Shown: piece after piece, positions 2,330 to 64,000 of the stretch
Numbering within the stretch: position 1 is the stretch's first letter
Layout of the letters: each line of letters begins with the position of its first letter
Assembly (NCBI GenBank): GCA_902789325.1
Contig: CADANN010000001.1
Location: forward strand, 38,024 to 102,023
Reading direction: 5' to 3'
From: an uncultured Spirochaetaceae bacterium
GTDB taxonomy: Bacteria > Spirochaetota > Spirochaetia > Treponematales > Treponemataceae
DNA length: 64,000 nt
Program-made: the position numbers and the translations under genes
Notes under the pieces: model-generated
What the model was told of the DNA's origin: nothing
Database searches by the model: none
What the model saw: the letters and a program-made list of their open reading frames with translations, nothing else

Positions 2330-2434
2330 CATTTTCCCGTGTTGTAAAAAAAGTCTCGGTATTCTTTTGGACTTTTCAAGGTTATGAGCCGTTATCTTGT
2401 TCAAGCCTTGTTTTTCTACTATAATAAGTAGGAT

Positions 2435-4975: not shown

Positions 4976-5100
4976 CCTAAAATCGAAAATCCGTTAAAAA
5001 CTGAGCTGCGACAGCGGGTCAGTTTAGGATTATCGAAAAAACGGCTCAAGCAGCGAGACTATGCGAGCTGCCTAACGGCGAAAAGAAATCGGAGGTTTTT

Positions 5101-16372: not shown

Positions 16373-18139
16373 TTACGCAAACACTCCCTGTACCATTTTC
16401 GCATAATGACCGCCAAGCTTTATCAACTCATCGTGGTTGCCGCGCTCAACAATCTCACCGTGGTCAACAAAGAAAATCACGTCGGCATTGCGGATGGTAG
16501 AAAGGCGGTGCGCAATAATAAAGCTTGTGCGCCCCTTCAAAAGTTCCCCAAGTCCCTGTTGAAGCGCTTTTTCAGTATGAGTGTCGACAGACGAAGTTGC
16601 TTCATCAAGAATCAAAATACGAGGATCGCTAAGCAGAACGCGTGCAAAACTTATCAGCTGTTTTTGTCCCTGACTCAAACCACCACCGTTTGCGCTAAGA
16701 ACCTTGTTGTACCCTTCCGGGAAAGCCGAAATAAATTCGTGAGCCTGTACTGCCTTGGCAGCTGCCATACACTCTTCGTCAGTGGCATCAAGTCTTCCGT
16801 AGCGGATGTTTTCCATAATGGTTCCGCTGAAAAGGAAGCTGTCCTGAAGCATTACACCAACCTGCTTACGGATAGATTTAATCTGGAGTTCCTGAATATC
16901 GATTCCATCTATCAAAATCTTACCCTTTTCTGCATTATAGAAACGGCTCAAAAGATTTACGATAGTTGTTTTTCCAGCCCCTGTTGGACCAACGATTGCA
17001 ACTGTCATACCAGGAGTAATTGTAAAATCTACATCCTTTAAGATAGGGTTACCCGGCTCATAGCTGAAATCAACATGATCAAACTGAACGTGTCCGCGAA
17101 TTGGAGGAAGTTCGCGTGCACCAGGTTTGTCTGTAATATCATCATTTTCGTCCAGCAATTCAAAAATGCGTTCAATATAAGCGCCGGTTGTTACCATAGA
17201 ATTGTAAAAGTTTCCAAGATTCTGAATTGGCTGCCAGAAACGCCAGATATAACCGGCAAAGGCAACAAGAGTACCAATTGTTACAGTTTCACCAAGCCAA
17301 TTGATACCAGCAAGGTAAACCAGCGTTACACCCAAAGTAGAAAGAATATCTACAGAAGGCCAGATAATATTGTTGATGTTTACGGCATGAATCCAGACCT
17401 TTTTGCACTTGCGGCAAAGTTCGTCAAAGATTCCCTGATTTACTTCTTCACGGGCAAAGCTCTGTGTTACCTTCATTCCATTTAAGCTTTCAGAAAGATA
17501 AGCTGTAAGATTTGAACGTTTGTAGCTTTCCTGCTTCCAGGCTTCGTGCTGCTTTTTCTTCATTGAAAAAAGAATGATAAAAAGAACCGGCAGTACAGCC
17601 ATACAAACTAACGTTAGTTTTACATCAATTGCAATCATAAAACCGATGATTACAAGCAAAGTAAACAAATCTGAAATCAGCTGAATGATTCCGTTAGAAA
17701 GCAAATCTGAAAGCGAGTTTACATAGTTTACAACGCGGATAAGAATCTTTCCGTGCGGACGGCTGTCAAAGTAACTGAACGGCAGTGACTGCAATTTTGT
17801 AAATACATCGCGACGAATGTTTACAATAATCTTTTGCGCTACGCGAGTCATAATTTTTAGTTTTTCTGCAAGAAGAATTCTTACAAAAAAGGTTGAAAAA
17901 AGCAGTATCGCAGAAATTATAACTAACAAACGATAGTTAGCCGTTGGAATTGCCTTATCAATTGCCATACGTGTTAAGTATGGACTACAAAGAGAGATTG
18001 CAGAAGACACCAGCATAATTACACAAGAAAGCACCATCCAGGCAGTGTAAGGCTTAATCCATTTTGAAAGTCTCATTACAACATGAGGATTAAATTTCTG
18101 TTCTATTTCTTCATCAGTATCAAATCTATTTCTTGCCAT
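16373..18139 (-). CDS. ABC exporter, fused permease/ATPase (heterodimer partner B)
   Basis: Six-TM domain, Walker A GPTGAGKTT, signature LSQGQKQ and Walker B ILILDEATS. Confidence 0.92.
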   Translation of the reverse strand: MARNRFDTDEEIEQKFNPHVVMRLSKWIKPYTAWMVLSCVIMLVSSAISLCSPYLTRMAIDKAIPTANYRLLVIISAILLFSTFFVRILLAEKLKIMTRVAQKIIVNIRRDVFTKLQSLPFSYFDSRPHGKILIRVVNYVNSLSDLLSNGIIQLISDLFTLLVIIGFMIAIDVKLTLVCMAVLPVLFIILFSMKKKQHEAWKQESYKRSNLTAYLSESLNGMKVTQSFAREEVNQGIFDELCRKCKKVWIHAVNINNIIWPSVDILSTLGVTLVYLAGINWLGETVTIGTLVAFAGYIWRFWQPIQNLGNFYNSMVTTGAYIERIFELLDENDDITDKPGARELPPIRGHVQFDHVDFSYEPGNPILKDVDFTITPGMTVAIVGPTGAGKTTIVNLLSRFYNAEKGKILIDGIDIQELQIKSIRKQVGVMLQDSFLFSGTIMENIRYGRLDATDEECMAAAKAVQAHEFISAFPEGYNKVLSANGGGLSQGQKQLISFARVLLSDPRILILDEATSSVDTHTEKALQQGLGELLKGRTSFIIAHRLSTIRNADVIFFVDHGEIVERGNHDELIKLGGHYAKMVQGVFA

Positions 18140-30097: not shown

Positions 30098-31509
30098 ACC
30101 GGATAATCTCCGCTGAAGCAGCCTCTGCAGAAAGCATTACTGCCCAAAGCTTTGAGCATTCCTTCAAGACTTATAAATGCAAGCGAGTCTGCACCAATTT
30201 CCTTACGGATTTCTTCGAGTTCATGAGTACTTGAAATCAACTCACCCTTACTTGGCGTATCGATTCCAAGATAACAAGGGAACTTTACTGGTGGCGAGCT
30301 TACACGGAAGTGAACTTCTTTAGCCCCTGCCCTTCTTAAAATCTGAACAAGACGGCGGCTTGTGGTTCCACGAACAATTGAATCATCTATAACAACAACC
30401 CGTTTACCACTCAAGTCACTGCCAATGGCATTCAGTTTTACGAATACCATATTCTCACGTTCTTTCTGAGTAGGAGCAATAAAGGTTCGGCCAATATATT
30501 TGTTTTTGACTATTCCAGTTACATAAGGTATGCCGCTTTCTTTTGCATATCCGATTGCCGCACCAATTCCACTATCTGGAACGCCTATTACAACATCAGC
30601 ATCAACTTTACTTTCCTGTGCAAGCATTGCTCCCATTTTGTAACGGGCTTCCTGAACAGGGATTCCATCAATTACACTGTCCGGGCGGGCAAAATAAACA
30701 TATTCGAAAATGCAGGTTCTCTTTGCAACCGCAGGTTCAGTAGACGAACTACCGTTAGTTAGGATACTTCGCATTCCATTTTTATCAACAACTACAACTT
30801 CACCAGGCGCAACATCTCTTACAAATTTTCCATTTACGGAATCAATTGCGCAAGATTCAGAAGTGATTATATAACTACCAGAGCCTTCATTAATCTCGCC
30901 GATACAAAGAGGACGGATTCCATTAGGGTCTCGTACTGCAATCAAAACATCCTGTGTCATAATACAAAGTGCGAAAGAACCTTTTATTGCTTTTACAGCC
31001 TCAACAACTGCTTCTATGAAAAGCTCCATATCATGACCAGAGTGTCCAGGCTTTCCACCTTTTTCTATATACTTGCGAACAATTAATTTTAAGATTACTT
31101 CACTATCACTAGACGAACTGAATGTACTTCCTGAATCTTCCAGAAGAGAACGGAGTTCCGTGTGATTTACCAGCTGACCATTATGTGCAAGAGCGATTGA
31201 ACCAAACTTATAGGTATTCAAAAACGGCTGTGCATTTTCTATTGTGCGACCGCCGGCAGTGGCATAGCGAACATGACCAACTGCAACAGATCCTTCAAGC
31301 TTGGCAATATCATCACTCTTAAAAACTTCGCCCACAAGGCCCATTCCCTTGTGAAGCTTTATTTTTCCCTCAGCATCTCCGTTACTAACAGCAATTCCCG
31401 CACTCTCCTGTCCGCGGTGCTGAAGACTTGTAAGCGCGTAGTAAGCAAGCTGAGCCGCACTCTGCGCGCCGTAAATGCCAACAACTCCACATTCGTCATG
31501 CAGTCCCAT
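30094..31509 (-). CDS. purF: amidophosphoribosyltransferase
   Basis: N-terminal MGLHDECGVVGIYG (Ntn Cys) and PRTase motif VVVIDDSIVRGTT. The start abuts the gltD stop (TAAATG). Confidence 0.96.
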   Translation of the reverse strand: MGLHDECGVVGIYGAQSAAQLAYYALTSLQHRGQESAGIAVSNGDAEGKIKLHKGMGLVGEVFKSDDIAKLEGSVAVGHVRYATAGGRTIENAQPFLNTYKFGSIALAHNGQLVNHTELRSLLEDSGSTFSSSSDSEVILKLIVRKYIEKGGKPGHSGHDMELFIEAVVEAVKAIKGSFALCIMTQDVLIAVRDPNGIRPLCIGEINEGSGSYIITSESCAIDSVNGKFVRDVAPGEVVVVDKNGMRSILTNGSSSTEPAVAKRTCIFEYVYFARPDSVIDGIPVQEARYKMGAMLAQESKVDADVVIGVPDSGIGAAIGYAKESGIPYVTGIVKNKYIGRTFIAPTQKERENMVFVKLNAIGSDLSGKRVVVIDDSIVRGTTSRRLVQILRRAGAKEVHFRVSSPPVKFPCYLGIDTPSKGELISSTHELEEIRKEIGADSLAFISLEGMLKALGSNAFCRGCFSGDYPV

Positions 31510-33072: not shown

Positions 33073-33199
33073 TTTTTTCCTCGCAAAAAACAAAAAGGCG
33101 CCGTAAGAAGAATCCGAAATTTTCAGACTCTTTTTACGGCGCCTTTGCCTTTAAACTAAATTGTTTCTATATTATCGCAAAATGACATATTGTTGTCAA
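33073..33199 (-). promoter_or_regulatory. gltD-purF leader: sigma70 promoter + GGCAAAGG-box terminator hairpin
   Basis: On the minus strand: TTGACA (33199-194), 17-nt spacer, GATAAT (33176-171), box AAGGCAAAGG, hairpin arms at 33146-33134 and 33106-33094, then TTGTTTTTT. A GAGG RBS and the ATG at 33072 follow. Confidence 0.7.
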
Positions 33200-40506: not shown

Positions 40507-40713
40507 CTAACGTTCCTTATCATCCACCATAAAAAAAAGCCGCGGACACAATTACGCACCAAACGTAAAAGTTACCGCGGCCTCTTTGCCGGCTTAGAGA
40601 TTTTCACAAAACAAAAAAGGCCGTAGACACAATCTCATACCCATATGAAATTATATCTACGACCTCTTTGCCGTAATTTAAGTAATACTACAAAAATGCA
40701 GTGTTACTGTCAA
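40507..40713 (-). promoter_or_regulatory. gltB leader: sigma70 promoter + two tandem GGCAAAGAGG-box terminator hairpins
   Basis: On the minus strand: TTGACA (40713-708), 17-nt spacer, TAGTAT (40690-685).
- Hairpin 1: box ACGGCAAAGAGG (40674-663), arms 40664-56 and 40627-19, then T6.
- Hairpin 2: box CCGGCAAAGAGG (40592-581), arms 40581-75 and 40545-39, then T8.
The flanking gene is divergent, so these hairpins cannot terminate an upstream gene. Confidence 0.75.
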
Positions 40714-41356: not shown

Positions 41357-42910
41357 TTATCCATTCAATATTTTTGCTGCCTCGTTTTCCCCATTTGATG
41401 TTGAATAAAAATAAGGTGTTTCAGCATCAAATTCGCCGGCACAGGTATCAACCATTTTGAAGGATATCGGAGGATACAACATTCCGCTGTTACTTTTTTC
41501 AGCCTTTGTAATATTTTCCAGCTTGCACAGGAACCACTCGTCAATTTTTGTAATTTCGTGAATCTGTTCAACTGAATAAAGTCCGCGTTTAAGGGCCTGA
41601 TAAATTGCAAATATTCTCTGATCGGTGCACTGTCCTACCCGTTCGCGTATTTTCTCATCACCTTCTTTTTCAAAGGCAGGAAGATTCAAATCTTTTACAC
41701 CAACTTCAAGTCCTCGGGCAGCCTTAAGAATTGCTTCTTCAAAGTTCTGGCCAATTGCCATAACTTCACCAGTTGCCTTCATCTGTGTACCAAGCTTACG
41801 TGCAGCATAAACAAATTTATCGAACGGGAACTTTGGCATTTTTACAACTACATAGTCGAGAACAGGTTCAAAGCAGGCTTTTGTCTTCTTTGTTACAAAG
41901 TTTGGAATTTCATCCAGAGTAAAGCCAACTGCTATGAGGGCTGCAACCTTTGCGATTGGATAGCCGGTTGCTTTTGAAGCGAGCGCTGAAGAACGCGAAA
42001 CACGAGGGTTTACCTCAATTACCGCATATTCAAAGCTGTCTGGATTAAGTGCAAACTGACAGTTACAGCCACCTTCAATTTCGAGGGCGCTGATGATATT
42101 GAGTGCGGCACTTCGCAGCATCTGATATTCTTTATCTGCAAGAGTCACAGTTGGTGCAATTACGATTGAGTCACCAGTATGAACACCAACAGGATCAAAG
42201 TTTTCCATAGAACAGACAGTAATTACGTTAGCATTGCTGTCCCGCATTACTTCAAACTCAACTTCTTTCCATCCGCTGATACATTTTTCTACAAGTATCT
42301 GATGAATTGGCGAACGATGAAGTCCGTTATGAGCAATTTCGTCCAGTTCGCGGTCGTTATTTACAATACCACCACCTGTTCCACCAAGGGTAAAGGCCGG
42401 ACGGATAATTGCAGGAAAGCCGATTTCGTTATGAACAAAATCAGCAGCATCTTCGTAAGTAGTTACAACTTTTGAAGGAATACAAGGCTCTCCTATTGCT
42501 TCCATTGTATCTTTGAACATCTGGCGGTCTTCTGCCTTGTCGATTGTTTCAGGGCGTGCACCAAGCAGCTGAACATTATGGCTCGCAAGAAAGCCGGATT
42601 TTGCAAGCTCCATACTGAGGGTCAATCCCGTCTGACCGCCAAGTGTTGAAAGCAGGCTGTCTGGTTTTTCTTTTTCGATGATTCTTTCAAGAGTTCGCAG
42701 AGTAAGCGGTTCCATGTAAATCTCATCTGCCATTTCGTGGTCAGTCATTAAAGTTGCCGGATTTGAGTTTACAAGACAAACTTCAAGTCCAAGAGATTTC
42801 AGAGCCTTACATGCCTGATTTCCGGCATAGTCAAATTCCGCTGCCTGTCCAATTACAATCGGACCGGAACCAATAATCATTACTTTGTGAATATTTTTAT
42901 TGAGAGGCAC
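41357..42910 (-). CDS. carB: carbamoyl-phosphate synthase large subunit, N-terminal half only
   Basis: 517 aa. It begins [25 protein letters not shown] and ends at ...[20 protein letters not shown], the junction between the two homologous CarB halves. A stop follows, and then a convergent GNAT gene. Confidence 0.9.
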
Positions 42911-44042: not shown

Positions 44043-44172
44043 TTTGACTCCTATGTCAGGCCTCTATGGCCAAAAAAAAAAGACGCTCATTCCATTTGAA
44101 GACAATAAGTCTATAAATCGAATGAACGTCTTTGTTCTTTAATGTTATACAGTGTTTACAAATTGTGGTCAA
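44043..44172 (-). promoter_or_regulatory. carAB leader: sigma70 promoter + A-tract/terminator hairpin
   Basis: On the minus strand: TTGACC (44172-167), 17-nt spacer, TATAAC (44149-144). Then AGAACAAAGACGTTCATTC...GAATGAGCGTCTTT (arms 44133-120 and 44092-079) plus T10, followed by an AGGAG RBS. Confidence 0.65.
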
Positions 44173-44270: not shown

Positions 44271-45128
44271 ATGATATTCACAAAAATGCAGGGGTGTGGT
44301 AACGATTATGTTTATGTTGACTGCACCAACGGACTGCAAATAAAGGATGAAGCACTTGCTGCTCAAAAAGTTTCGGACCGTCATTTTGGAATTGGCAGCG
44401 ATGGATTAATTTTAATTAAAAAGGGCCATCTTGCAGATTTTGAAATGGTTATGTACAACGCAGATGGAAGCCGCAGTCAGATGTGCGGAAACGGCATTCG
44501 CTGTGTTGCAAAATATGTATATGATAAAAAATTAACTAACGGTCGTGAGTTCACAATTGAATCTATGGGCGCTGTAAAACACATCACAATTACAAGTGGT
44601 GAACCAGGAGATAAAGTCTGCTATGCACGCGTAGATATGGGAAAACCAATTTTGCAGGCAGAAAAGATTCCAGTTCTAACCACAGGTTCGAAAGTAATTA
44701 TGCATCCACTTAATGTTGCTGGCACAGAATATAAAATCACCTGTGTTTCTATGGGAAACCCTCACGCAGTTGTTTTCCTCGACAAAAAGCCTGCTGAATT
44801 CGACGTTTGCGGCATCGGGCCTTCTTTTGAACACAACGAGTTCTTCCCAGAACGAACAAATACCGAATTTGCTTACGTTGCAGACCGTCGTACAATTTTT
44901 ATGCGAGTCTGGGAACGTGGAACCGGTGAAACTTTAGCCTGCGGAACCGGAACTTGTGCAACTGTAGTTGCCGCAATTCTAAACGGCCTTGTAGATGCAG
45001 GAGAAAAAATCACAGTACATCTGCTTGGTGGAGATCTGGAAATTGAATGGAGCGGCAATGAGGCCGACAGTGTATTCATGACCGGCCCTGCCACCACAGT
45101 ATTCGAAGGAGAAATTGAAGGAGTATAA
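44271..45128 (+). CDS. dapF: diaminopimelate epimerase
   Basis: N-terminal FTKMQGCGNDYVYVD and the two catalytic Cys motifs (MCGNG and ACGTG). Confidence 0.95.
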   Translation: MIFTKMQGCGNDYVYVDCTNGLQIKDEALAAQKVSDRHFGIGSDGLILIKKGHLADFEMVMYNADGSRSQMCGNGIRCVAKYVYDKKLTNGREFTIESMGAVKHITITSGEPGDKVCYARVDMGKPILQAEKIPVLTTGSKVIMHPLNVAGTEYKITCVSMGNPHAVVFLDKKPAEFDVCGIGPSFEHNEFFPERTNTEFAYVADRRTIFMRVWERGTGETLACGTGTCATVVAAILNGLVDAGEKITVHLLGGDLEIEWSGNEADSVFMTGPATTVFEGEIEGV

Positions 45129-46334: not shown

Positions 46335-46552
46335 TTGACAAAAATATTTAGAAATTGTATAAAACAAATAACAAACGACAATGAGGTCGCAGAACAGGGG
46401 TTTCTGCGACCTTTTTTGTTTTAAAATCATTCCGACTGCCGTTGGCATGTTCGGAGAAACTAACAATCGGCAAAGGCGCTGCGTTTTCATTTTGATGTAC
46501 ACAGAATGAAAGTGCGGCGTTTTTTTTGTCGGTTATATATAAGGATAATAAA
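46335..46552 (+). promoter_or_regulatory. type III GS leader: sigma70 promoter + two tandem box/terminator hairpins
   Basis: TTGACA (46335-40), 17-nt spacer, TATAAA (46358-63).
- Hairpin 1: ACGACAATGAGG box, arms GGTCGCAGAA (46385-94) and TTCTGCGACC (46402-11), then T6.
- Hairpin 2: TCGGCAAAGG box (46468-76), arms 46477-91 and 46505-19, then T8.
RBS AAGGA, ATG at 46553. Confidence 0.75.
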
Positions 46553-48738: not shown

Positions 48739-50646
48739 ATGAAAAAAACTATTAAATCAAAAATGTTTATTGGAGCAATGATGATTGGCTTTTCATTATT
48801 GCTAACTGGATGTCCACAACCTGCGAGTGGTGGTGGAGAAAATTATGATGAACCATTACCTGAAATTAATGATATTCTTTTCGGTGATCCTGATTGGGAT
48901 ATAACTTATAATAGTATATCAGGAGTGATTGATTATGATCCTGTATTAGCAAGATATCCACAGTATGGTGATGCTCTTGTAAATACACATGGCAAAATAA
49001 TTAGAATAGCAACTCATATAGAAGAAGGAGGTAAATATTATTATTCTACCGATTCATCAATGACTATTAATGATATTACTGTTACAGAAGAATCTGCTCT
49101 TTCATTTGATTATAGATGCGATTTACTTAATTGGACAAATGGAACAGAAACATACGTCAATTATTTTGTGGTATACATTGATAATGAAGAATTACCTGTT
49201 TTTACACAAACTGGCTCAGGTCAAATGTGGCAAAACACTTCTTTGATCCTTTCACCTGGCTCTCATACAGTTAAGTTTTGTACTGTTCTTGATGAAAGTA
49301 AATACCGTGCAGAAGGTCTTTCAAATGCAGTATATTTAGATAATATCACACTTGCCCCAAATAAAATTGCTTCTGTAGATATCTATCCAAAAGGATTGCA
49401 GGAAACTTATGTAAATGGAGACACAATTCAGTTTACTGCAAAAGCTCTTCGTTCCGATGGCTCAGTAATTCCAGGAGAAACTGTAACATGGACAGCAACA
49501 GGCGGTTCAATTGACAGCAACGGTTTATTTACACCAGGAAGCTCAACAGGAAACGTTTCTGTTACAGCAACTATTAATGGAAAATCAGCTTCAAATACAA
49601 CAGTAAAAGTTCATGGTTCAAGTTACCTCACAGATCCTGTAACAATTAATGGACATACATTTACTGGAAAAATAACAAAGATTGATAATACTGCATTTAC
49701 TGATACTAATAATATAACATTTGTTTCCCCTACTCCTAGATACAGTAACTTCTATGCAGATGGTTTCTTTGTTTTGAAAGGAACTGCAACTGGCACAAAT
49801 CCTGTTTTATTCATGAGAAAACGAGGTGACGGATATTTAATTAACAACGAATACAATCCAAAGTATCCTTATCAGTCAACAATTGTTTTACCATCAGGAG
49901 ATTTTGAACAGAGAATCTGGTTACGATGGGGAGACGGAATTTACGATATTTGGATTGAAGAAGGTGAAGTTACATATAATGAAAGTTATGATGGTTATGA
50001 AGGAGCATGGGTTACCTGGCATCTTCCTCGTAACGCAGGAGAATCTACATACTTTTATGTAGTAAATCAATCTAACTTCAAATATTCTACAGAAGACTGT
50101 GCTTTCCTTATGCCTTCAGACAATTGTCAATGTGATGATTTCCTTATTACAAATGCATTTAATGCAGTAATGGCAGAATTACCAGATGATGCAACACTCG
50201 GTATGAAGCTCCAGGCATTATATGACTGGGAAGCTCGAAGAAGTCATTATGATTATGTAAGTTTTACAACCACCTCTACCACAAAACGAAAGCGTCAGGA
50301 TGCTGTTCATGTTCTAAAATATGAAATGGCTGTATGTGAAGGTTATGCTGATCTTTACACAGCCTTTGCACGTCTTTTAGGAGTAAAGTCTGCATACCAA
50401 TCTTCAGAAAACCTATGTCATGCATGGACAGAACTTTATTATAAAGGAAAGTGGAAAATGGTAGATATTACCTGGGATGATCCATCTGCGAATATGTCTA
50501 CAGACAAAAATCCAACCGCAGAAAACTACTGGTATTTCTTAATCGATCCTGACGATGCTAGTCATGCGAAACGAGACAGCGAAGGCTATACTATCGAGCC
50601 ATATCAATACGATAGAGTAACAGACTACAGTCGTTCTGCGAATTAA
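48739..50646 (+). CDS. lipoprotein with Big_2-like Ig domain and transglutaminase-like cysteine-protease core
   Basis: Lipobox LLLTGC, an Ig-like repeat (TVTWTATGGSIDSNGLFTP) and a transglutaminase triad context (CEGYADLY...HAWTELYY...VDITWDD). Confidence 0.75.
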   Translation: MKKTIKSKMFIGAMMIGFSLLLTGCPQPASGGGENYDEPLPEINDILFGDPDWDITYNSISGVIDYDPVLARYPQYGDALVNTHGKIIRIATHIEEGGKYYYSTDSSMTINDITVTEESALSFDYRCDLLNWTNGTETYVNYFVVYIDNEELPVFTQTGSGQMWQNTSLILSPGSHTVKFCTVLDESKYRAEGLSNAVYLDNITLAPNKIASVDIYPKGLQETYVNGDTIQFTAKALRSDGSVIPGETVTWTATGGSIDSNGLFTPGSSTGNVSVTATINGKSASNTTVKVHGSSYLTDPVTINGHTFTGKITKIDNTAFTDTNNITFVSPTPRYSNFYADGFFVLKGTATGTNPVLFMRKRGDGYLINNEYNPKYPYQSTIVLPSGDFEQRIWLRWGDGIYDIWIEEGEVTYNESYDGYEGAWVTWHLPRNAGESTYFYVVNQSNFKYSTEDCAFLMPSDNCQCDDFLITNAFNAVMAELPDDATLGMKLQALYDWEARRSHYDYVSFTTTSTTKRKRQDAVHVLKYEMAVCEGYADLYTAFARLLGVKSAYQSSENLCHAWTELYYKGKWKMVDITWDDPSANMSTDKNPTAENYWYFLIDPDDASHAKRDSEGYTIEPYQYDRVTDYSRSAN

Positions 50647-50679: not shown

Positions 50680-50931
50680 TTGACAACTTTTTTTAATTTC
50701 GGTATAAAGAAAAACATCTAAGGCAAAGAGGTCGTAGGAATAATCCTTCGACCTCTTTTCTTTTTTAACAAACATGGCAATGGCGCTGCGTATACTACGT
50801 TTCTAACTAACGTTAGTTATCCGCAGCGTTTATTTTTTACGGCGATGATGTCGGGCATTTGTGCACAATGTCTGAAATTGTCGCCGTTATTTTTTTAATG
50901 TGATTTTCGAACTTACACAGGAGGTATACAG
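50680..50931 (+). promoter_or_regulatory. amtB leader: sigma70 promoter + three tandem terminator hairpins
   Basis: TTGACA (50680-85), 17-nt spacer, TATAAA (50703-08).
- Hairpin 1: AAGGCAAAGAGGTCG, arms 50725-34 and 50749-58, then T-run.
- Hairpin 2: ATGGCAATGGCGCTGCG (50774-90) pairing with CGCAGCG (50822-28), then TTTATTTTTT.
- Hairpin 3: ACGGCGA (50839-45) pairing with TCGCCGT (50881-87), then TATTTTTTT.
RBS AGGAGG, ATG at 50932. Confidence 0.75.
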
Positions 50932-52602
50932 ATGAGTGAAGTTTGGAGTGTATGGTTTTTAATCGGCGCTGCACTTGTATTCTTTATGCAGTGCGGTTTT
51001 GCAATGGTTGAAACAGGTTTTACAAGAGCGAAGAATGCGGGAAACATCATTATGAAAAACCTGATGGATTTCTGTATCGGAACTCCTATGTTTATGCTTC
51101 TCGGCTTTGGTTTAATGATGAGCGAGAACTATTTCTTTGGTGTAATTGGTAAACCAAATATGCAGTTGTTTACAAACTTTGCTGAAGGCGACTGGTCAGC
51201 ATTCGTTTTCAATCTTGTATTCTGTGCAACAGCTGCTACAATCGTATCTGGTTCTATGGCAGAACGAACTAAGTTCTCTGCTTACTGTATCTACTCTGCT
51301 GTAATTTCTGCAGTTGTTTACCCTATCGAAGCTGGTTGGGTTTGGAACTCACAGGGCTGGCTCGTTCAGCTTGGTTTCGTAGACTTCGCTGGTGGTGCTG
51401 CAATTCACTCAGTAGGAGGGACCGCTGCATTGATTGGTGCAATCTTCCTTGGTCCTCGTATTGGAAAGTATGATTACGATAAGGACGGAAAGGTAACAAA
51501 GGTACACGCTATTCCTGGTCACTCTTTGACACTCGGTGCTCTCGGAACTTTCATCCTCTGGTTCGGATGGTACGGCTTCAACGGAGCTGCTTGTACACAG
51601 CTTCTTGGAGTTGGAGGTCTTGCTGCAGTATTCACAACAACAACAATTGCCCCTGCAGTTGCTGCTGTTACTACAATGATTTTTACCTGGGTAAAGAACG
51701 GTAAGCCTGATGTTTCTATGACACTCAACGCTTCACTTGCTGGTCTTGTTGCTATTACTCCTACATGTGCCACAGTTGATGCACTTGGTGCAAGCATCAT
51801 CGGTATCGTTTCAGGTATTATCGTTGTAGTAGTTGTTGAATTCCTTGATATGAAGCTCCACATTGATGACCCGGTTGGTGCTGTTGCAGTTCACCTTGCA
51901 AACGGTATCTGGGGTACATTAAGTGATGGTTTATTCAACGTTGAAAACGGTGTATTCTACGGTGGCGGTGTAAAGCACCTTGGAGTACAGTGTCTTGGTG
52001 AGTTCACAATTGTTGCATGGACAACAGTTTGTATGATTATCACATTCAGCCTTATCAAGAAACTCCATGGACTTCGTGCAAGCCGTGAAGAAGAAATCAT
52101 CGGTCTTGATAAGCTCGAGCACGGAATTGATTCAAGCTACGCAGGATTCATCATGGCTCCACAGGTTCTTGGCGGAGACAGCCCTGCATCAGGAGAAAGC
52201 GTTCCTGTTGAAAAGGCAGTTCCAGTTGCAAAGGCAACAGCTCGTCCAGATGCAAAGTTCCATATGGTTACAATCATTACACGCCAGAGCAAGTTCGACG
52301 AGCTCAAGGCTGCAATGAACGACATCAACGTAACAGGTATGACAGTTACAAACGTACTTGGTTGCGGCCAGCAGCACGGAAACGTTCAGAAGTATCGTGG
52401 TGTTGAAATGGATATGACATTGCTTCCTAAGATTAAGGTTGATATCGTAGTAAGCGAAGTTCCAGTTGATCTTGTTGTAACAGCCGCTAAGGAAGTTCTT
52501 TACACAGGCCACATCGGCGACGGAAAGATTTTCGTATACGATGTTCAGAATGTTGTAAAGGTTCGTACCGGAGAGGAAGGATACGAAGCTTTGCAGGATT
52601 AG
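50932..52602 (+). CDS. amtB: ammonium transporter fused to a C-terminal PII (GlnK/GlnB) domain
   Basis: Residues 1 to ~400 are an Amt/MEP polytopic domain (AGGAAIHSVGG, WFGWYGFN). A Pro/Ala/Ser linker follows. The last ~115 aa are PII-like (FHMVTIITR...T-loop GQQHGNVQKYRG...GDGKIFVYDV). Confidence 0.9.
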   Translation: MSEVWSVWFLIGAALVFFMQCGFAMVETGFTRAKNAGNIIMKNLMDFCIGTPMFMLLGFGLMMSENYFFGVIGKPNMQLFTNFAEGDWSAFVFNLVFCATAATIVSGSMAERTKFSAYCIYSAVISAVVYPIEAGWVWNSQGWLVQLGFVDFAGGAAIHSVGGTAALIGAIFLGPRIGKYDYDKDGKVTKVHAIPGHSLTLGALGTFILWFGWYGFNGAACTQLLGVGGLAAVFTTTTIAPAVAAVTTMIFTWVKNGKPDVSMTLNASLAGLVAITPTCATVDALGASIIGIVSGIIVVVVVEFLDMKLHIDDPVGAVAVHLANGIWGTLSDGLFNVENGVFYGGGVKHLGVQCLGEFTIVAWTTVCMIITFSLIKKLHGLRASREEEIIGLDKLEHGIDSSYAGFIMAPQVLGGDSPASGESVPVEKAVPVAKATARPDAKFHMVTIITRQSKFDELKAAMNDINVTGMTVTNVLGCGQQHGNVQKYRGVEMDMTLLPKIKVDIVVSEVPVDLVVTAAKEVLYTGHIGDGKIFVYDVQNVVKVRTGEEGYEALQD

Positions 52603-52644
52603 GCTAACTAACGTTATGTTGTTTTCTATTTACTCATAATATTT

Positions 52645-56527: not shown

Positions 56528-56572
56528 GTCATTCCGAACTTGTTTCGGAATCTAAATCAAGTTCAGCATGAC
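56528..56572. repeat. double-hairpin repeat element, copy C (second hairpin half-deleted)
   Basis: GTC-ATTCCGAA-CTTGT-TTCGGAAT-CTAAATC-AAGTTCAGCATGAC. It overlaps the last 3 codons and the stop of the minus-strand gene. Confidence 0.75.
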
Positions 56573-57876
56573 TCAACCACACGGATTGCAAAAGTGTCAT
56601 CGGCAATGCAAACTTCGCCGCGTGCAACAATTTTGCCTGAGCGGATAATCTGTGCAAACTCTCCGGCCCTCTGTTTCAAAATAACATAAGAGCCCTGATG
56701 CAGGCCTGCAACTTCTTCTTTTGAAAGGTAAGCGCTTCCAAGCTGAATCGAAATATAATCTTTTTCATCGTAGATGATTTCATTCAACTGAGGATTTTCA
56801 GCAATTCTCATTCCAAAAAGTTCATCAATTGCAACAGTTTTACCAGTGTGAATTACACGGTTCTCATAAACAAGATTTAGTCCTTCATTTTCCTTTTTAT
56901 CCAGAATTAAAATCAAGCCCGGTTCAAGAGAAACATTTTCCGGACGGAATCTTCCAAGTTCAATAAAAACATTGTCCGGCTGCTGATGACTTTTTATATT
57001 TGAAAGATTCTGAAATCTTATTTTTCCACCAACAGTTCCTGCATTTCCGCCGTCACCAAAAAAGCCGCCCATAACCATTTCTTCAAGAAGAGTGTCACTA
57101 AACTGAAGATTTATCCAGCCTTCCTGACCGGCAACATTTCCCTTAAGAGCAAGCAGCAGCATCATGCAATTGTCTTCCTGCCGAGTCGTATTGGAATTTC
57201 CTGCAGCCACAGCTTTTCCCAGCTCAAACTTTTCGTCAGAAACCTTCCCGTCTGTGCGCCGACAGATTTCTTCCTTAAGCATTCCTGTTACAGTTTTTAC
57301 AAAATAATTCTTAAAAACATCAATATCAAATTCAGTAATGGCCTCGTATTTCGTGCAATCCTGTTTGAGCAGTGCCTTTGCAATCAGAGCATCTGCTTCA
57401 ATAGTAAAACCTGCATTCGAATAATCAAAATCATAGAAAAAACATTTCTGCGGAATCGAATGTAAAAACTCGGAATTAATCATCTGATCCACAAGTGACA
57501 CAGAAAAATCACAGCGCTCATTCATCATGGCAGTAAATTCATGATTTATAAGACGGCAGATATCCTCGCCCAGAATCCAAAGCTCCCGCTGCATATAACG
57601 CGGATAACGGTCTGGCTGGCGGAAGTTATACTCCTTAATTTTCTTTCCGCTCACATCCTGACTCACAGGCAATTCGCCGTTCATAATCGACTCAACTTCA
57701 ACTCCAAATACTTCGGCAAGTTTAGGAAGTACTGTCACATCCGGGCAACCTTCACCACGCTCCCACTTTGAAACAGCTTTGTCGGTTACATTACATTGTT
57801 CTGCAAGTTCCTTTTGAGTAAGTCCCTTTCGATTTCGTAATTCATAAATCAAAAATCCAGTTTTTTCTGCATTCAT
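56563..57876 (-). CDS. XRE-type HTH fused to FliM-like middle domain and FliN/SpoA-like C-terminal domain
   Basis: - HTH: LRNRKGLTQKELAEQCNVTDKAVSKWERGE.
- FliM-like segment: IKEYNFRQPDRYPRYMQRELWILGEDICRLINHEFTAMM...
- FliN-like end: GSYVILKQRAGEFAQIIRSGKIVARGEVCIADDTFAIRVVE.
The start follows an AAGGAG RBS. Confidence 0.75.
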   Translation of the reverse strand: MNAEKTGFLIYELRNRKGLTQKELAEQCNVTDKAVSKWERGEGCPDVTVLPKLAEVFGVEVESIMNGELPVSQDVSGKKIKEYNFRQPDRYPRYMQRELWILGEDICRLINHEFTAMMNERCDFSVSLVDQMINSEFLHSIPQKCFFYDFDYSNAGFTIEADALIAKALLKQDCTKYEAITEFDIDVFKNYFVKTVTGMLKEEICRRTDGKVSDEKFELGKAVAAGNSNTTRQEDNCMMLLLALKGNVAGQEGWINLQFSDTLLEEMVMGGFFGDGGNAGTVGGKIRFQNLSNIKSHQQPDNVFIELGRFRPENVSLEPGLILILDKKENEGLNLVYENRVIHTGKTVAIDELFGMRIAENPQLNEIIYDEKDYISIQLGSAYLSKEEVAGLHQGSYVILKQRAGEFAQIIRSGKIVARGEVCIADDTFAIRVVESC

Positions 57877-57962
57877 AATAATTCTCCTTAGCAGTTTCCC
57901 GCTTACATTCAAAATCGTAACACGGAAGCTGCAGTCTGTAACCCGACGTGTAGTTTAACAGA

Positions 57963-58172: not shown

Positions 58173-58456
58173 TTGCAAATCAACGTTTAAAACGATAATA
58201 TAGTAGAAACGACAAAGAGGTCGTAGATAAAATCCTTGAAAACAACAGGGGTTCTGTCTACGACCTCTTTTTTTTATTTGTGAAAAGGAGGAAAAGGACC
58301 GTCCAAAATCAATTTGGAAGATTCTAAAAAGTTGCTCCACGTATTCGCAACTTTTTTTAACGAATCTTCGATAGACCGCATGAACATTTTCGGGTTGAAA
58401 CCTAAAATTGCTTCACAGCGGTTCAGCAATTTTTTTACGGTTTCTTCGATAAGAGT
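58173..58456 (+). promoter_or_regulatory. asnB-carB'-pyrG-glnA leader: sigma70 promoter + three tandem terminator hairpins
   Basis: TTGCAA (58173-78), 17-nt spacer, TAATAT (58196-201).
- Hairpin 1: ACGACAAAGAGGTCGTAGA, arms 58214-27 and 58257-70, then T8.
- Hairpin 2: AAAAAGTTGC (58326-35) and GCAACTTTTT (58347-56).
- Hairpin 3: AAAATTGCT (58404-12) and AGCAATTTT (58425-33), then TTT.
ATG at 58457. The upstream gene is divergent. Confidence 0.75.
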
Positions 58457-60247
58457 ATGTGTGGTTTTGTAGGATGCTTTGATTTGAACTCAGGTAGCGC
58501 GCCTATTGCAGAAGGCTTGAAAGAAGAACTTCGTGCGCAGGTTCTGGAGATGTCTAAGAAAATTCGTCACCGTGGTCCAGACTGGAGCGGTGTTTATACC
58601 GGTAATAATGCTATTTTAAGCCATGAACGTCTTTCAATCGTAGACCCACTTTCAGGAAAACAGCCTTTGGTCAGCGATGATGAAAAAATCATTCTTGCCG
58701 CAAACGGTGAAATCTACAATCACAAGGAAATCCGAGCAAAGTTTGATGGTTCATATAAGTTCAGAACTGGAAGTGACTGCGAAGTTATTATTCCTCTTTA
58801 TAAAAAATACCGCAAATCTGGCGATTTCACAAAGATGATTGAAGAGCTTTCGGGTATCTTCGCATTCGCACTTTATGACAGCGAACACGACACATATCTG
58901 ATTGCCCGCGACGAAATCGGTGTTATTCCACTATATCAGGGCTGGGACAAAGCAGGCCGCTATTATGTTGCAAGCGAACTCAAAGCTCTCGAAGGCGACT
59001 GCCAGACAATTGAAGAATTCCCTAATGGAAGTTATTTATACAGCGGCCGTCATGCTGAACTTGTTTCAGCATCAACTGATGAGACCCCGAAACCAATCCG
59101 CTGGTATCACCGCAACTGGGAATCATATGAAAGCGTAAAATCAGCCCCAAAAGCAACCGACGAAAAAGGCGAAGTAATCAACCCAAGCGTAATCGAAAAA
59201 GTACGTAACGGACTCGAAACTGCAGTAAAAGCCCAGTTGATGTCAGACGTTCCTTACGGCGTACTTCTTTCCGGCGGTCTCGACTCATCAATCATCGCAG
59301 CAATCACACAAAAATACAGCAAAAAACGTATTGAAACAGACAGCAAGGAAGCAGCCTGGTGGCCACAGCTCCACTCATTCGCAGTTGGACTTGAAGGTTC
59401 TCCAGACCTTATCGCTGCTCAAAAGGCCGCAGACTATATCGGAACCGTTCACCATGAAGTACACTTTACAATTCAGGAAGCACTCGATGCTCTCCCTGAT
59501 GTAATTTACCACATCGAAACTTACGACATCACAACAGTTCGTGCCTCTACCCCTATGTATCTGCTTGCGCGTGTAATCAAATCTATGGGAATCAAGATGG
59601 TTCTTTCGGGCGAAGGAAGTGACGAGCTCTTTGGTGGTTACCTTTACTTCCACAAGGCTCCAAATGCACAGGAGTTCCATGAAGAACTTGTACGTAAAAT
59701 GAGTAAACTTCATCTTTACGACTGTCTCCGTGCAAACAAATCTCTTATGGCATGGGGTGTTGAAGGCCGCGTTCCATTCCTTGATAAAGACTTTATCGAC
59801 ATCGCAATGGGCCTCAACCCAAGTGATAAAATGAACATCAAATTACCAGATGGTAAACAGAGAATGGAAAAATGGATTCTCCGTAAAGCCTTTGAAGATC
59901 TTCTTCCAGAAAGCATTGCATGGCGCCAGAAGGAACAGTTCTCAGATGGTGTAGGCTATAACTGGATTGATACCCTCAAAAAGATGACAGAAGAAAAGGT
60001 AAGCGACGCAGAATTTGCACGCCGCGAAAACCGCTTCCCTGTAAATCCTCCAAAAACAAAAGAGGAATATTACTACCGCGAAATCTACAGCCGCCTCTTC
60101 CCAAGCGACAGTGCAGCACGTTGTGTTCCACACGAAGCCGGAGTTGCATGTTCAACAGCAAAAGCCCTCGAATGGGATGCAGCATGGAAGACTATGGATG
60201 AACCGAGCGGACGCGCAATTGCAGGAGTTCACGATAATGCCTACTAA
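58457..60247 (+). CDS. asnB: asparagine synthase (glutamine-hydrolysing)
   Basis: N-terminal MCGFVG (Ntn Cys) and PP-loop SDVPYGVLLSGGLDSS. 596 aa. Confidence 0.96.
   Translation: MCGFVGCFDLNSGSAPIAEGLKEELRAQVLEMSKKIRHRGPDWSGVYTGNNAILSHERLSIVDPLSGKQPLVSDDEKIILAANGEIYNHKEIRAKFDGSYKFRTGSDCEVIIPLYKKYRKSGDFTKMIEELSGIFAFALYDSEHDTYLIARDEIGVIPLYQGWDKAGRYYVASELKALEGDCQTIEEFPNGSYLYSGRHAELVSASTDETPKPIRWYHRNWESYESVKSAPKATDEKGEVINPSVIEKVRNGLETAVKAQLMSDVPYGVLLSGGLDSSIIAAITQKYSKKRIETDSKEAAWWPQLHSFAVGLEGSPDLIAAQKAADYIGTVHHEVHFTIQEALDALPDVIYHIETYDITTVRASTPMYLLARVIKSMGIKMVLSGEGSDELFGGYLYFHKAPNAQEFHEELVRKMSKLHLYDCLRANKSLMAWGVEGRVPFLDKDFIDIAMGLNPSDKMNIKLPDGKQRMEKWILRKAFEDLLPESIAWRQKEQFSDGVGYNWIDTLKKMTEEKVSDAEFARRENRFPVNPPKTKEEYYYREIYSRLFPSDSAARCVPHEAGVACSTAKALEWDAAWKTMDEPSGRAIAGVHDNAY
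59049..59093. repeat. double-hairpin repeat element inside asnB (copy B, 3'-truncated)
   Basis: GTC-ATGCTGAA-CTTGT-TTCAGCAT-CAACTGATGAG-ACCCCGAA-AC. It is translated in frame as RHAELVSASTDETPK. Confidence 0.8.
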
Positions 60248-61826
60248 TGATTCTGCAAAATCAAAAGGAACAATCGTAGTTCTTGGTTCAGGCCCAATCC
60301 GAATCGGTCAGGGAATTGAGTTCGACTACGCGAGCGTTCAGTGTGTACGCGCCCTCAAAAAACTTGGGTATGAAGTTGCAATCATCAACAACAACCCGGA
60401 AACTGTAAGTACCGACTTTGATACTGCAGACCGTCTTTATTTTGAACCACTCACTCCACCAGATGTTATGAACGTAATCAACGATGAAAAACCTCTTGGT
60501 GTAGTAGTTGCATTTGGCGGTGGAACAGCAATTAAACTTGCAAAATATCTGGACAGTCAGGGAGTACGTATTCTCGGAACTTCTGCAGATGCAATCGACC
60601 TTGCCGAAGACCGTGAACGTTTTGAAGAACTCTGCGACCGCCTCAACATTAAGCGCCCTCGCGGACTTACAGTGTTTACAGAAGTAGAAGCCCTCGAATC
60701 TGCTGCAAAAATCACCTACCCTGTTCTCATGCGACCAAGCTACGTACTTGGCGGTCAGAACATGATTGTTGCCCGCAACAATGCAGATGTAAAAGAATAC
60801 ATGAAAATCATTCTGCGTCAGGGAATTGAAAATCCGGTTCTTATCGACAAATATATGGAAGGAACTGAGCTCGAAGTAGACTGTATCTGCGACGGCGAAA
60901 ATGTTTTGATTCCTGGAATTATGGAACACGTTGAGCGCACTGGTATTCACTCAGGTGACTCAATTGCAGTTTATCCAGGTCAGTTCACTCCAGAAATTGA
61001 AGAAAAAATCGTTCGTCAGTCTACAGACCTTGCACTTGCACTTGGAACAAAAGGTCTTGTAAATATTCAGTATCTTATTTACGACAATGATCTTTATATT
61101 ATCGAAGCAAATCCACGTTCAAGCCGTACCGTTCCTTACCTTAGTAAGGTTTCTGGTGTACCAATGATTGACCTTGCAACCCGCGCCATGCTCGGAGAAA
61201 AAGTTCGTGAACTTGGTTATGGAACAGGTCTTTACCGTAAACCAGATTATTGTGCCGTAAAAGTTCCAGTATTCAGTTTTGAAAAACTGATGGATGTGGA
61301 TACACATCTTGGCCCGGAAATGAAATCAACTGGTGAAGTTCTTGGCATTGCCCCTACCCGCGAAGAAGCACTCTTTAAAGGAATGGTTGCTGCAGGATGG
61401 AAGATGATTAAAGAAGGCGGCATTCTGTTCTCAGTTCGTGAATCTGACCTTCCGGAACTTCCAGCCCTTGCAAAAAAGTTTTATGATCTTGGCTTTACTC
61501 TTTATGCAACAAGCGGAAATGCCTCAACAATTGAACGCAGTGGTATGCCCGTAACCCACGTTGCAAAAGTTCACGAAAATTACAATGACAATGTAATGAC
61601 TCTTCTGGAAAGCGGAAAAGTTGTTTACGTAGTTTCTACATCTGCAAAAGGACGCGATCCTGTAGCCGAAAGCGTAAAGCTTCGCCGTCTTGCTGTAGAA
61701 CGAGATATTGATTGTCTTACAGCCTTGGACACTGCTAACGCACTCGCAGACTGTCTTGCAAGTCCATACACATTAGATAACGTAAGCGTAGTTGATATCA
61801 ATCACGATTTAAGAATTCATAACTAA
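60237..61826 (+). CDS. carB: carbamoyl-phosphate synthase large subunit, C-terminal half (second ATP-grasp + MGS-like allosteric domain)
   Basis: It starts MPTNDSAKSKGTIVVLGSGPIRIGQGIEFDYASVQ, matching the second CarB repeat, and ends with an MGS-like domain (ILFSVRESD...LYATSGNA). The ATG at 60237 overlaps the asnB stop by 11 nt. The upstream part of the ORF-track ORF overlaps asnB and is discounted. Confidence 0.9.
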   Translation: MPTNDSAKSKGTIVVLGSGPIRIGQGIEFDYASVQCVRALKKLGYEVAIINNNPETVSTDFDTADRLYFEPLTPPDVMNVINDEKPLGVVVAFGGGTAIKLAKYLDSQGVRILGTSADAIDLAEDRERFEELCDRLNIKRPRGLTVFTEVEALESAAKITYPVLMRPSYVLGGQNMIVARNNADVKEYMKIILRQGIENPVLIDKYMEGTELEVDCICDGENVLIPGIMEHVERTGIHSGDSIAVYPGQFTPEIEEKIVRQSTDLALALGTKGLVNIQYLIYDNDLYIIEANPRSSRTVPYLSKVSGVPMIDLATRAMLGEKVRELGYGTGLYRKPDYCAVKVPVFSFEKLMDVDTHLGPEMKSTGEVLGIAPTREEALFKGMVAAGWKMIKEGGILFSVRESDLPELPALAKKFYDLGFTLYATSGNASTIERSGMPVTHVAKVHENYNDNVMTLLESGKVVYVVSTSAKGRDPVAESVKLRRLAVERDIDCLTALDTANALADCLASPYTLDNVSVVDINHDLRIHN

Positions 61827-63464: not shown

Positions 63465-64000
63465 ATGTACACAAAAGAAGAAGTATTAGATTTTATTCAG
63501 GAAGAAGACGTTAAGTTCATTCGTCTTGCATTTTTTGACCTTACAGGAAAACAGAAAAATATTTCTATAATGCCAAGCGAACTGGAACGTGCCTTCGAAC
63601 ATGGAATTCCATTTGATGCTTCTGCTATCGAAGGTTTTGAAGGTCCTCAAAAATCTGAGTTATACCTCTTACCAGATCCTTCTACCCTCGCAATCATTCC
63701 ATGGCGCCCTGCAACAGGAAAGGTTGTTAGAATGTTCTGTAATATTCTAACCCCTGATGGAACTCCATATTCAAAAGACAGCCGTACAATTTTGCAGAAT
63801 GCCTGCCGCAAGCTCAAAGAAGAATGTGGTATTGAAATGATGGTTGGAACTGAAGTTGAATTCTATCTCTTTAAGTTAGATGAAAAAGGAGAACCAACCA
63901 CTGAAACTTTTGATAAAGCAGGCTATATGGATATTGCCCCGGAAGACCACGGAGAAAATATCCGCCGAGAAATCTGTTTTACTCTTGAACAGATGGGAAT
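63465..64000 (+). CDS. glnA: glutamine synthetase type I (5' part; runs off window end)
   Basis: Absent from the ORF track because there is no stop in the window. I translated it by hand: MYTKEEVLDFIQEEDVKFIRLAFFDLTGKQKNISI...GTEVEFYLF, the GSI beta-grasp and first catalytic motifs. A GAGGTG RBS lies 5 nt upstream. Confidence 0.88.
   Translation, partial: MYTKEEVLDFIQEEDVKFIRLAFFDLTGKQKNISIMPSELERAFEHGIPFDASAIEGFEGPQKSELYLLPDPSTLAIIPWRPATGKVVRMFCNILTPDGTPYSKDSRTILQNACRKLKEECGIEMMVGTEVEFYLFKLDEKGEPTTETFDKAGYMDIAPEDHGENIRREICFTLEQMG

Follow-up and report, generated by a model that had tools for sequence, protein, structure and literature searches.

A probable three-gate ANTAR-type attenuator in the amtB-PII leader of an uncultured Spirochaetaceae bacterium

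The ammonium transporter gene considered here lies in a 64,000-nucleotide stretch of DNA (hereafter the window) from an uncultured Spirochaetaceae bacterium, which corresponds to positions 38,024 to 102,023 of contig CADANN010000001.1 (NCBI GenBank assembly GCA_902789325.1), and all coordinates below are counted within it unless another contig is named. The gene (50932-52602, + strand) encodes a protein of 556 amino acids (aa) in which an ammonium transporter is fused to a PII protein (Pfam Ammonium_transp, 2.4e-115; P-II, 2.3e-23), which bears out the name amtB-PII that it had been given in an earlier note on this DNA. The protein shows 96 % identity to its counterpart in Treponema bryantii NK4A124 and 90-92 % to those of other rumen Treponema, and its next relatives belong to the Clostridia, with 60-70 % identity. 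The AmtB-PII fusion is common in rumen and gut Clostridia (loci L007-L086 were compared). In this paper, we argue that the leader of this gene is probably a three-gate attenuator, by which the gene, as the regulated cargo, would be placed under antitermination by an ANTAR protein of the NitR/GnfR type. The argument is built on the structures computed for the leader, their mutual exclusivity, their covariation, their enrichment in the leaders of nitrogen genes, the match to a published binding site and an adjacent ANTAR gene.

The gene is preceded by a sigma-70-type promoter read from the sequence (50680-50708, +), with TTGACA at 50680-50685, a spacer of 17 nt and TATAAA at 50703-50708, from which transcription is predicted to start at ~50714-50717, ~7 nt 3' of TATAAA. 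The ribosome-binding site (RBS) and the start codon occupy 50919-50934 (+), with AGGAGG at 50919-50924 and ATG at 50932, and three hairpins, each followed by a T-run, lie between the promoter and the RBS, exactly as the earlier note had stated. The TTGAC-N17/18-TATAA arrangement is also kept in the Treponema relatives L007, L008 and L009, and in contig L006 the synteny of the upstream gene is lost just 5' of the -35 element while the promoter and the leader are retained. Folding of the leader (50712-50935) gives three separate strong helices with a T-run after each, the fold as a whole having a z-score of -7.3, with none of 200 dinucleotide shuffles folding as well. A search of Rfam at the gathering scores and at E <= 10 returned nothing relevant to the leader, whose best match reached 25 bits against a gathering score of 50, and only two tRNAs in the window. 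A simple terminator scan of the window did not pick up the three units either, because their loops or internal bulges exceed the limits of the scan.

Each unit consists of a short hairpin, hereafter the box hairpin, and an intrinsic terminator that overlaps it, all on the + strand. In unit 1, the box hairpin (50722-50733), a putative antiterminator, has a GGC/GTC stem and the hexaloop AAAGAG (50725-50730), with -1.7 kcal/mol on its own, and can be extended to 50718-50737 with one A-G mismatch. The 9 nt that make up its loop and 3' arm also open the 5' arm of terminator 1 (50725-50766), in which the stem at 50725-50758 (AAAGAGGTCG.AGGA paired with TCCT.CGACCTCTTT) is followed by TTTTCTTTTTT, with the T-run extending to 50766. 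Box hairpin 2 (50775-50788; stem TGGC/GCTG, hexaloop AATGGC at 50779-50784) overlaps terminator 2 (50783-50838), whose outer stem pairs GCGCTGCG (50783-50790) with CGCAGCGT (50822-50829) and is followed by TTTATTTTTT, with the T-run extending to 50838; the inner stem of this terminator is a perfect 16-bp palindrome, TAACTAACGTTAGTTA (50804-50819). Box hairpin 3 (50840-50853; stem CGGC/GTCG, hexaloop GATGAT at 50844-50849), which belongs to a subclass with G at loop position 1 (G1), is entirely contained in the 5' arm of terminator 3 (50839-50896), with the stem ACGGCGATGAT...ATTGTCGCCGT at 50839-50887, then TATTTTTTT, with the T-run extending to 50896. The three terminators have folding energies of -22.4, -21.0 and -25.8 kcal/mol, respectively, and retain -2.5, -5.5 and -5.1 kcal/mol when the box is sequestered; the structure that remains, at -2.5 to -5.5 kcal/mol, does not abut the T-run, and 16-21 kcal/mol of terminator stability is lost. 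Each box shares its loop and 3' arm with the start of the 5' arm of its terminator, so that box hairpin and terminator exclude each other, and an overlap of this kind, which is a characteristic of ANTAR substrates, is found in all three units. With -1.7 to -2.5 kcal/mol alone, the box hairpins are too weak to prevail unaided, yet the terminator is lost once they are held, which is the anatomy of a protein-dependent antiterminator.

The same units stand before other nitrogen genes of the window. The earlier note had claimed that the box of unit 1 is common to the asnB and gltB leaders and that the box of unit 2 is shared with glnN, and both claims hold: CAAAGAGGTCGTAG occurs exactly at 40657-40670 (-), 50724-50737 (+) and 58213-58226 (+), i.e. 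in the gltB, amtB and asnB leaders, and GGCAAWGGCGCTGCGT occurs exactly at 46469 and 50776, in the glnN and amtB leaders. With at most two mismatches allowed, CAAAGAGGTCGTAG has 6 matches in the window against 0.31 expected. What these boxes have in common is a hairpin with a hexaloop, which shows covariation and competes with the terminator of its own unit. When the window was scanned for such a hairpin followed by a terminator, 10 units were found against 1.6 (maximum 5) in simulated sequence, and all 10 lie on the coding strand immediately 5' of nitrogen-assimilation genes: three before amtB-PII, two each before gltB and glnN, and one each before gltD, carA and asnB. The glnN leader (glutamine synthetase III, GSIII; 46376-46527, +) carries the boxes CGAC-AATGAG-GTCG and CGGC-AAAGGC-GCTG, each with a terminator, and the gltB leader (40539-40676, -) carries two box-and-terminator units with the loop AAAGAG in both. 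The unit of the gltD leader (33090-33149, -) has the box GGCAAAGGCGCC; that of carA and the N-terminal half of carB (44075-44137, -) has GAAC-AAAGAC-GTTC and a terminator; and that of asnB (58209-58275, +) has CGAC-AAAGAG-GTCG and a terminator of -30.5 kcal/mol. In the promoter-proximal units the hairpin begins 4-14 nt 3' of the -10 element, and is therefore placed at the very 5' end of the transcript.

The conservation of the units was examined in 81 AmtB-PII leaders from Treponema and Clostridia. The pattern C-RANGNN-G is about twice as frequent in these leaders as in the flanking DNA, and 72 % of its matches in the leaders have at least two further stem pairs, compared with 15 % in the background. 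At least one unit was found in 65 of the 81 leaders (41 single, 19 double and 5 triple). For the analysis of covariation, 55 distinct boxes were chosen by their loop, closing pair and downstream terminator, with no criterion on the stem. The proportion of paired cells in these boxes is 77.9 % against 58 % in shuffles, and the covariation score is 0.611 against 0.236 in shuffles (none of 500 reached 0.611), with slid-partner controls at 0.168 or below. Three of the stem pairs are realized by 3-6 pair types each; for instance, pair 8-17 is GC in 24 boxes, AU in 17 and GU in 12, and pair 7-18 shows six types. These boxes thus have what is characteristic of ANTAR substrates, a covarying stem of at least 3 bp with a conserved C-G closing pair. 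The loop consensus is R-A-N-G-R-N, with A1 present in 46 of the 55 boxes; all of them have G4, by selection, whereas position 5, which was not selected for, is a purine throughout. Units 1 (AAAGAG) and 2 (AATGGC) of the amtB leader have the A1/G4 hexaloop. The box of unit 3 had been described as degenerate, and it does deviate from A1; but CGGCGATGRNGTCG is kept in L007-L010, and five Treponema leaders as well as several Clostridia share the G1 loop (GAYGRN), so that it represents a subclass and not mere decay. The Treponema leaders keep the promoter, unit 1 and unit 3, and unit 2 is seen in T. bryantii and one other species. In addition, a metagenome scan for the 16-mer GRCAAAGAGGTCGTAG gave, among the matches listed, ~11 loci with real units, located upstream of gltB, gltD, asnB and dapF, the rest being mostly chance matches; no ANTAR gene was seen at the real-unit loci among these listed matches. 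Three loci labelled as Bacteroidaceae, Parabacteroides or Bacteroides (L015, L022 and L066) have clostridial-type AmtB-PII loci with the same leader hairpins, and are probably mis-binned contigs of metagenome-assembled genomes.

The box matches a published protein binding site on RNA. GnfR of Geobacter sulfurreducens is an ANTAR response regulator that, once phosphorylated by GnfK, binds RNA with CAGGCAANGGCGCC, a sequence that lies 5' of terminators, and overlaps them, in the leaders of nifH, nifEN, glnK and amtB; when gnfR is deleted, nifH transcripts end prematurely (Ueki & Lovley 2010, PMC2995071). The GnfR box GGCAANGGCGCC can be written as a GGC/GCC stem with the hexaloop AANGGC, and the leaders of the window contain this same RNA box, (CA)GGCAANGGCGCC, upstream of and overlapping an intrinsic terminator before nitrogen genes, as in the glnK-amtB leaders of Geobacter. 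The gltD unit agrees with the GnfR consensus at 12/12 positions, unit 2 of amtB (GGCAATGGCGCT) and unit 2 of glnN at 11/12, and the units with the loop AAAGAG differ from it at 3 positions with the hairpin kept. The regulators are also alike in size, GnfR being a receiver-ANTAR protein of ~190 aa and the present one an ANTAR protein of that length with a putative receiver. On the other hand, the host here is a spirochaete with sigma-70-type promoters, whereas the Geobacter genes depend on RpoN/GnfM; no cognate kinase was seen here and the receiver-like half appears to be degenerate; up to three units are arranged in series; the cargo consists of assimilation genes (amtB-PII, GSIII, glutamate synthase (GOGAT), asnB and carA) and not of nif genes; and the reading of the box as a hairpin, as well as its covariation, is absent from PMC2995071.

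Two further groups of systems invite comparison. ANTAR substrates have been defined as two hexaloop hairpins with A1 and G4 that overlap terminators, and the predicted ANTAR regulons include genes for PII, ammonium transporters, glutamine synthase and glutamate synthase (Ramesh et al. 2012, PMC3369931). The present units resemble the substrates of EutV, NasR and AmiR in their A1/G4 hexaloops, in stems of 3 bp or more whose closing pair is conserved and in the overlap with the terminator, as well as in forming a regulon over nitrogen genes with several elements per transcription unit. According to two reports (PMC6316151, PMC4676874), NitR of Clostridium saccharobutylicum/acetobutylicum is an ANTAR protein encoded after glnA and is said to induce the glutamine synthetase (GS)/GOGAT genes by antitermination on nitrogen limitation. 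The likeness to NitR lies in the placement of an ANTAR gene immediately 3' of glnA within a cluster for nitrogen assimilation, an arrangement found on contig L207 described below, and in the proposed antitermination of GS/GOGAT genes under nitrogen limitation; the differences are that the host here belongs to another phylum and that glnA and the ANTAR gene appear to be the last genes of an asnB-carB'-pyrG operon.

The window breaks off within glnA (GSI; 5' part, 63465-64000, +), and what follows can be seen on metagenome contig L207, where PyrG is identical and the DNA is 96.6 % identical to the last 2.1 kb of the window. On this contig, glnA (2392-3670) is followed after 8 nt by an ANTAR-domain gene (3679-4248, 189 aa), the product of which matches the Pfam ANTAR domain with an E-value of 3.4e-15 and has Rv1626, AmiR, EutV and NasR as its closest solved structures; the alignment to Rv1626 in the PDB spans residues 59-186. 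In the source genome, the ANTAR gene would sit roughly ~0.75-1.3 kb past the 3' end of the window. The Treponema protein is 33-39 % identical to clostridial counterparts at glnA-adjoining loci, and 60 relatives were listed in a homologue search with a clostridial ANTAR protein. Furthermore, an ANTAR gene (~190 aa) lies within 10 kb in 15 of 80 AmtB-PII loci of other genomes, and 12 of 15 clostridial loci have the order ANTAR<-glnA divergent from glnN->amtB-PII. GlnN is 63-72 % identical to clostridial proteins. Together with the glnA-ANTAR pair, the 60-72 % identity of AmtB-PII and GlnN to Clostridia suggests that the whole nitrogen module, together with its cis elements, was probably acquired horizontally. 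The window genes asnB, carB (C-terminal half), pyrG and glnA follow closely on one another, and none of the gaps holds a convincing terminator, so that the ANTAR gene probably closes an operon that starts with the asnB unit (likely asnB - carB C-terminal half - pyrG - glnA - ANTAR gene), in which case the regulator would be positively autoregulated at the level of the operon. The literature searched for ANTAR proteins in Treponema contained nothing relevant. At another locus, L040:3364-4863 (-), the C-terminal part of GlnA and an ANTAR domain share one stop-to-stop frame of 500 aa, which could be a GS-ANTAR fusion or a sequencing frameshift. The two halves of carB, for the large subunit of carbamoyl-phosphate synthase, are separate genes on opposite strands ~17 kb apart (41357-42910, -; 60111-61826, +), the N-terminal half being located with carA behind an ANTAR-type unit and the C-terminal half inside the asnB-pyrG-glnA operon.

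Several observations weigh against the reading of the leader as an ANTAR-controlled attenuator. Unit 3 has G at loop position 1 (GATGAT) in place of the critical A. The canonical tandem architecture was not found, each terminator having a single hairpin where the canonical substrate has two: within 40 nt of a box, a second hairpin with a hexaloop is present at chance frequency, upstream of 10 and downstream of 10 of 88 boxes against 8.0 and 8.4 expected, and there is no room for an upstream partner where the hairpin starts next to the promoter. As for the regulator, no ANTAR gene was found among the open reading frames (ORFs) of the window or in any of the Treponema AmtB loci with Pfam and a home-made ANTAR hidden Markov model, and its presence in the exact source genome would follow from the 96.6 % identity of L207 to the window. 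On that contig, glnA is split by a frameshift into parts of 191 aa and 232 aa, which could be an assembly error or a pseudogene. The N-terminal half of the Treponema ANTAR protein has no match to the Pfam receiver domain (Response_reg) at E <= 0.01, some clostridial homologues showing weak matches below the cut-off, and no kinase gene was seen near the ANTAR gene.

A rival reading is that unit 2, and perhaps others, is after all a canonical dual-hairpin ANTAR substrate, with the box as P1, the palindrome as P2 and an ANTAR dimer clamping both. The palindrome can indeed fold as TAACU-AACGUU-AGUUA, a 5-bp stem with a hexaloop having A1 and G4, both of which are kept in T. bryantii NK4A124 (AACGAU), and the 12 nt that separate it from box 2 fall inside the 5-12 nt of the EutV linker, in which a length of 3 or 14 nt abolishes EutV-dependent induction (PMC3369931). 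In a clostridial leader, L059, ~231-194 nt before amtB-PII, two boxes are indeed separated by 4 nt (CATAGCAAAGAGGCTATG gcag AGTTCAATGAGGAACT) and form a canonical ANTAR dual hairpin. Against this, the partner hairpins over the 88 boxes are at chance level, as given above; the closing pair of the palindrome is U-A and not the invariant C-G; its more stable fold is a 6-bp stem with the tetraloop ACGU; and the unit-2 homologue of another Treponema (L010) has no inner hairpin, while units 1 and 3 and all single-unit leaders have no partner. In contrast to the substrates of EutV, NasR and AmiR, in which two hairpins are 5-12 nt apart, the hairpins in these leaders are 46-117 nt apart with a whole terminator between each pair, and the loop of unit 3 begins with G. 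We therefore regard a dual-hairpin arrangement as unlikely, and as a function for the palindrome, for which it is the only one that we found, it is a weak candidate.

The palindrome had been singled out in the earlier note, and it is indeed perfect, but it is not a noteworthy conserved feature. About 1.35 perfect 16-bp palindromes are expected by chance in a 64-kb window of the same composition, so that its presence alone is unremarkable; the exact sequence is confined to the same-species contigs L001-L006, its counterpart in T. bryantii NK4A124 being TAACTAACGATAGTTA. The palindrome is thus an incidental inner stem that is not conserved beyond the species. Near-copies with up to three mismatches are over-represented in the window, with 6 sites against 0.36 expected, including 17605-17620, 17924-17939, 30746-30761, 44533-44548 and 52605-52620; the first of these is a second perfect 16-bp palindrome, AAACTAACGTTAGTTT, within an ABC-transporter ORF, and the last lies directly 3' of the amtB stop codon. 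These near-copies, in particular those at 17605-17620 and 52605-52620, would fit a DNA operator for a dimeric factor, e.g. a LacI-like protein with an AACGTT core, that adds a layer of roadblock or repression. Yet most of them are inside coding regions of unrelated genes, the other leaders of the regulon have no such palindrome, and the other terminators have unrelated inner stems. The idea of a conserved operator was rejected for lack of conservation, and an operator of any kind at this site seems to us distinctly improbable.

It is also conceivable, if very improbable, that the hairpins are bound by a regulator other than an ANTAR protein, such as CsrA, a PII-linked factor or some further protein, or that they form a metabolite-sensing riboswitch, for which one may point to the missing dual-hairpin architecture and to the location of the ANTAR gene outside the window. 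However, the box equals the experimentally bound GnfR site, and ANTAR genes co-localise with these loci in Clostridia and on the near-identical Treponema contig; moreover, a ligand pocket would not fit into a hairpin of 14 nt, and no Rfam family matches it. The motifs of CsrA, T-box, PyrR, TRAP and HutP were rejected on the consensus of the loop and flanks; in the case of CsrA, the GGA motif is not required, because only G4 and A2 are invariant in the loop. Finally, the hairpins begin 76 nt after the stop codon of the transglutaminase-like ORF 48739-50646, and a 10-codon ORF (50775-50807) overlaps unit 2, but constitutive terminators or insulators of that upstream gene, or attenuation by a leader peptide, can be practically dismissed, since a conserved promoter separates unit 1 from the upstream stop codon, L006 has a different upstream gene with promoter and leader intact, the same units head six other nitrogen-gene leaders, and the small ORF has no RBS and is absent in L007.

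A leader-peptide reading was likewise discarded for the asnB leader, in which, as in unit 2, there is no RBS and the conservation is at the level of nucleotides and not of the peptide. A second, different terminator-like repeat, YCTAAAA-[hairpin]-TTTTTTTAACGRNTYTTCGATA, has two copies in the asnB leader, 3' of the ANTAR-type unit (58310-58455, +), and one copy 3' of the penicillin-binding protein gene (4975-5060, -), and was also found in L011, L169, L171 and L174; it is present in Treponema-like asnB and amtB leaders, where it is conserved as nucleotides and not as a peptide, and may be a small intergenic repeat family or another class of attenuator. Elsewhere in the window, a protein of 449 aa (56563-57912, -) has the unusual make-up of an HTH_3 (XRE-type) domain at the N-terminus together with the C-ring domains FliM and FliN.

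For the three-gate ANTAR attenuator, the following mode of action can be proposed. By default, each of the three intrinsic terminators would form, and RNA polymerase would stop at terminator 1, 2 or 3. When nitrogen is limiting, the ANTAR protein would be active and would capture and stabilise each nascent hexaloop hairpin. The captured hairpin would tie up 9-14 nt at the start of the 5' arm of the terminator, which could then not form beside the T-run, and the polymerase would read on. Because read-through needs all three gates, the basal leak would be the product of three small numbers and the response would be steep. The weaker-looking G1 loop of unit 3 may require more active regulator. 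The same ANTAR protein would coordinate gltD, gltB, carA, glnN and asnB and, through the asnB operon, also glnA and its own gene, and the differing number of gates (amtB has three, gltB and glnN have two each, and gltD, carA and asnB have one each) would rank the thresholds of these genes. The earlier note had proposed that the three terminators impose a tight OFF state that is actively overridden under nitrogen limitation, a proposal to which the covarying hairpins in competition with the terminators, the match to the GnfR site and the glnA-adjacent ANTAR gene lend support; the binding of the ANTAR protein, the nitrogen signal, the route by which it would reach the protein, and the kinetics are inferred.

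We regard the locus as a further case of a nitrogen switch that is already known and not as a new mechanism, as ANTAR antitermination of nitrogen genes, including those with amtB and glnK leaders, and the glnA-nitR arrangement have already been established. It comes from a phylum for which no earlier report of an ANTAR nitrogen switch was found in the literature searched, and it points to a clostridial-type module, comprising the regulator, its cis elements, amtB-PII, GSIII and GSI, that is shared across phyla. Two features are of modest interest in themselves, namely the single-hairpin architecture and the three-gate array, which is at the top of a natural series of one to three gates. The ~90 covarying single-hairpin units argue that the dual-hairpin rule is not universal. 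We tentatively suggest, as a possibility that we hold with considerable reserve, that proteins of the NitR/GnfR class recognise a single hairpin, that thresholds are tuned by one to three gates and by A1 or G1 loops, and that nitrogen is sensed by the receiver without a kinase; the hairpin may often be located at the very 5' end of the mRNA, A1 loops may be of high and G1 loops of low affinity, and the degenerate receiver may sense nitrogen, e.g. through glutamine synthetase or PII. The leaders with one, two and three gates offer a natural series for measuring how tandem attenuators shape a response, and C-RANGRN-G followed by a terminator would be an inexpensive means of predicting nitrogen regulons in anaerobes of the gut and rumen, outside the coverage of Rfam. 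For rumen Treponema, in which no regulator of ammonium assimilation has been described in the literature searched, the analysis provides a concrete and testable model of nitrogen control.

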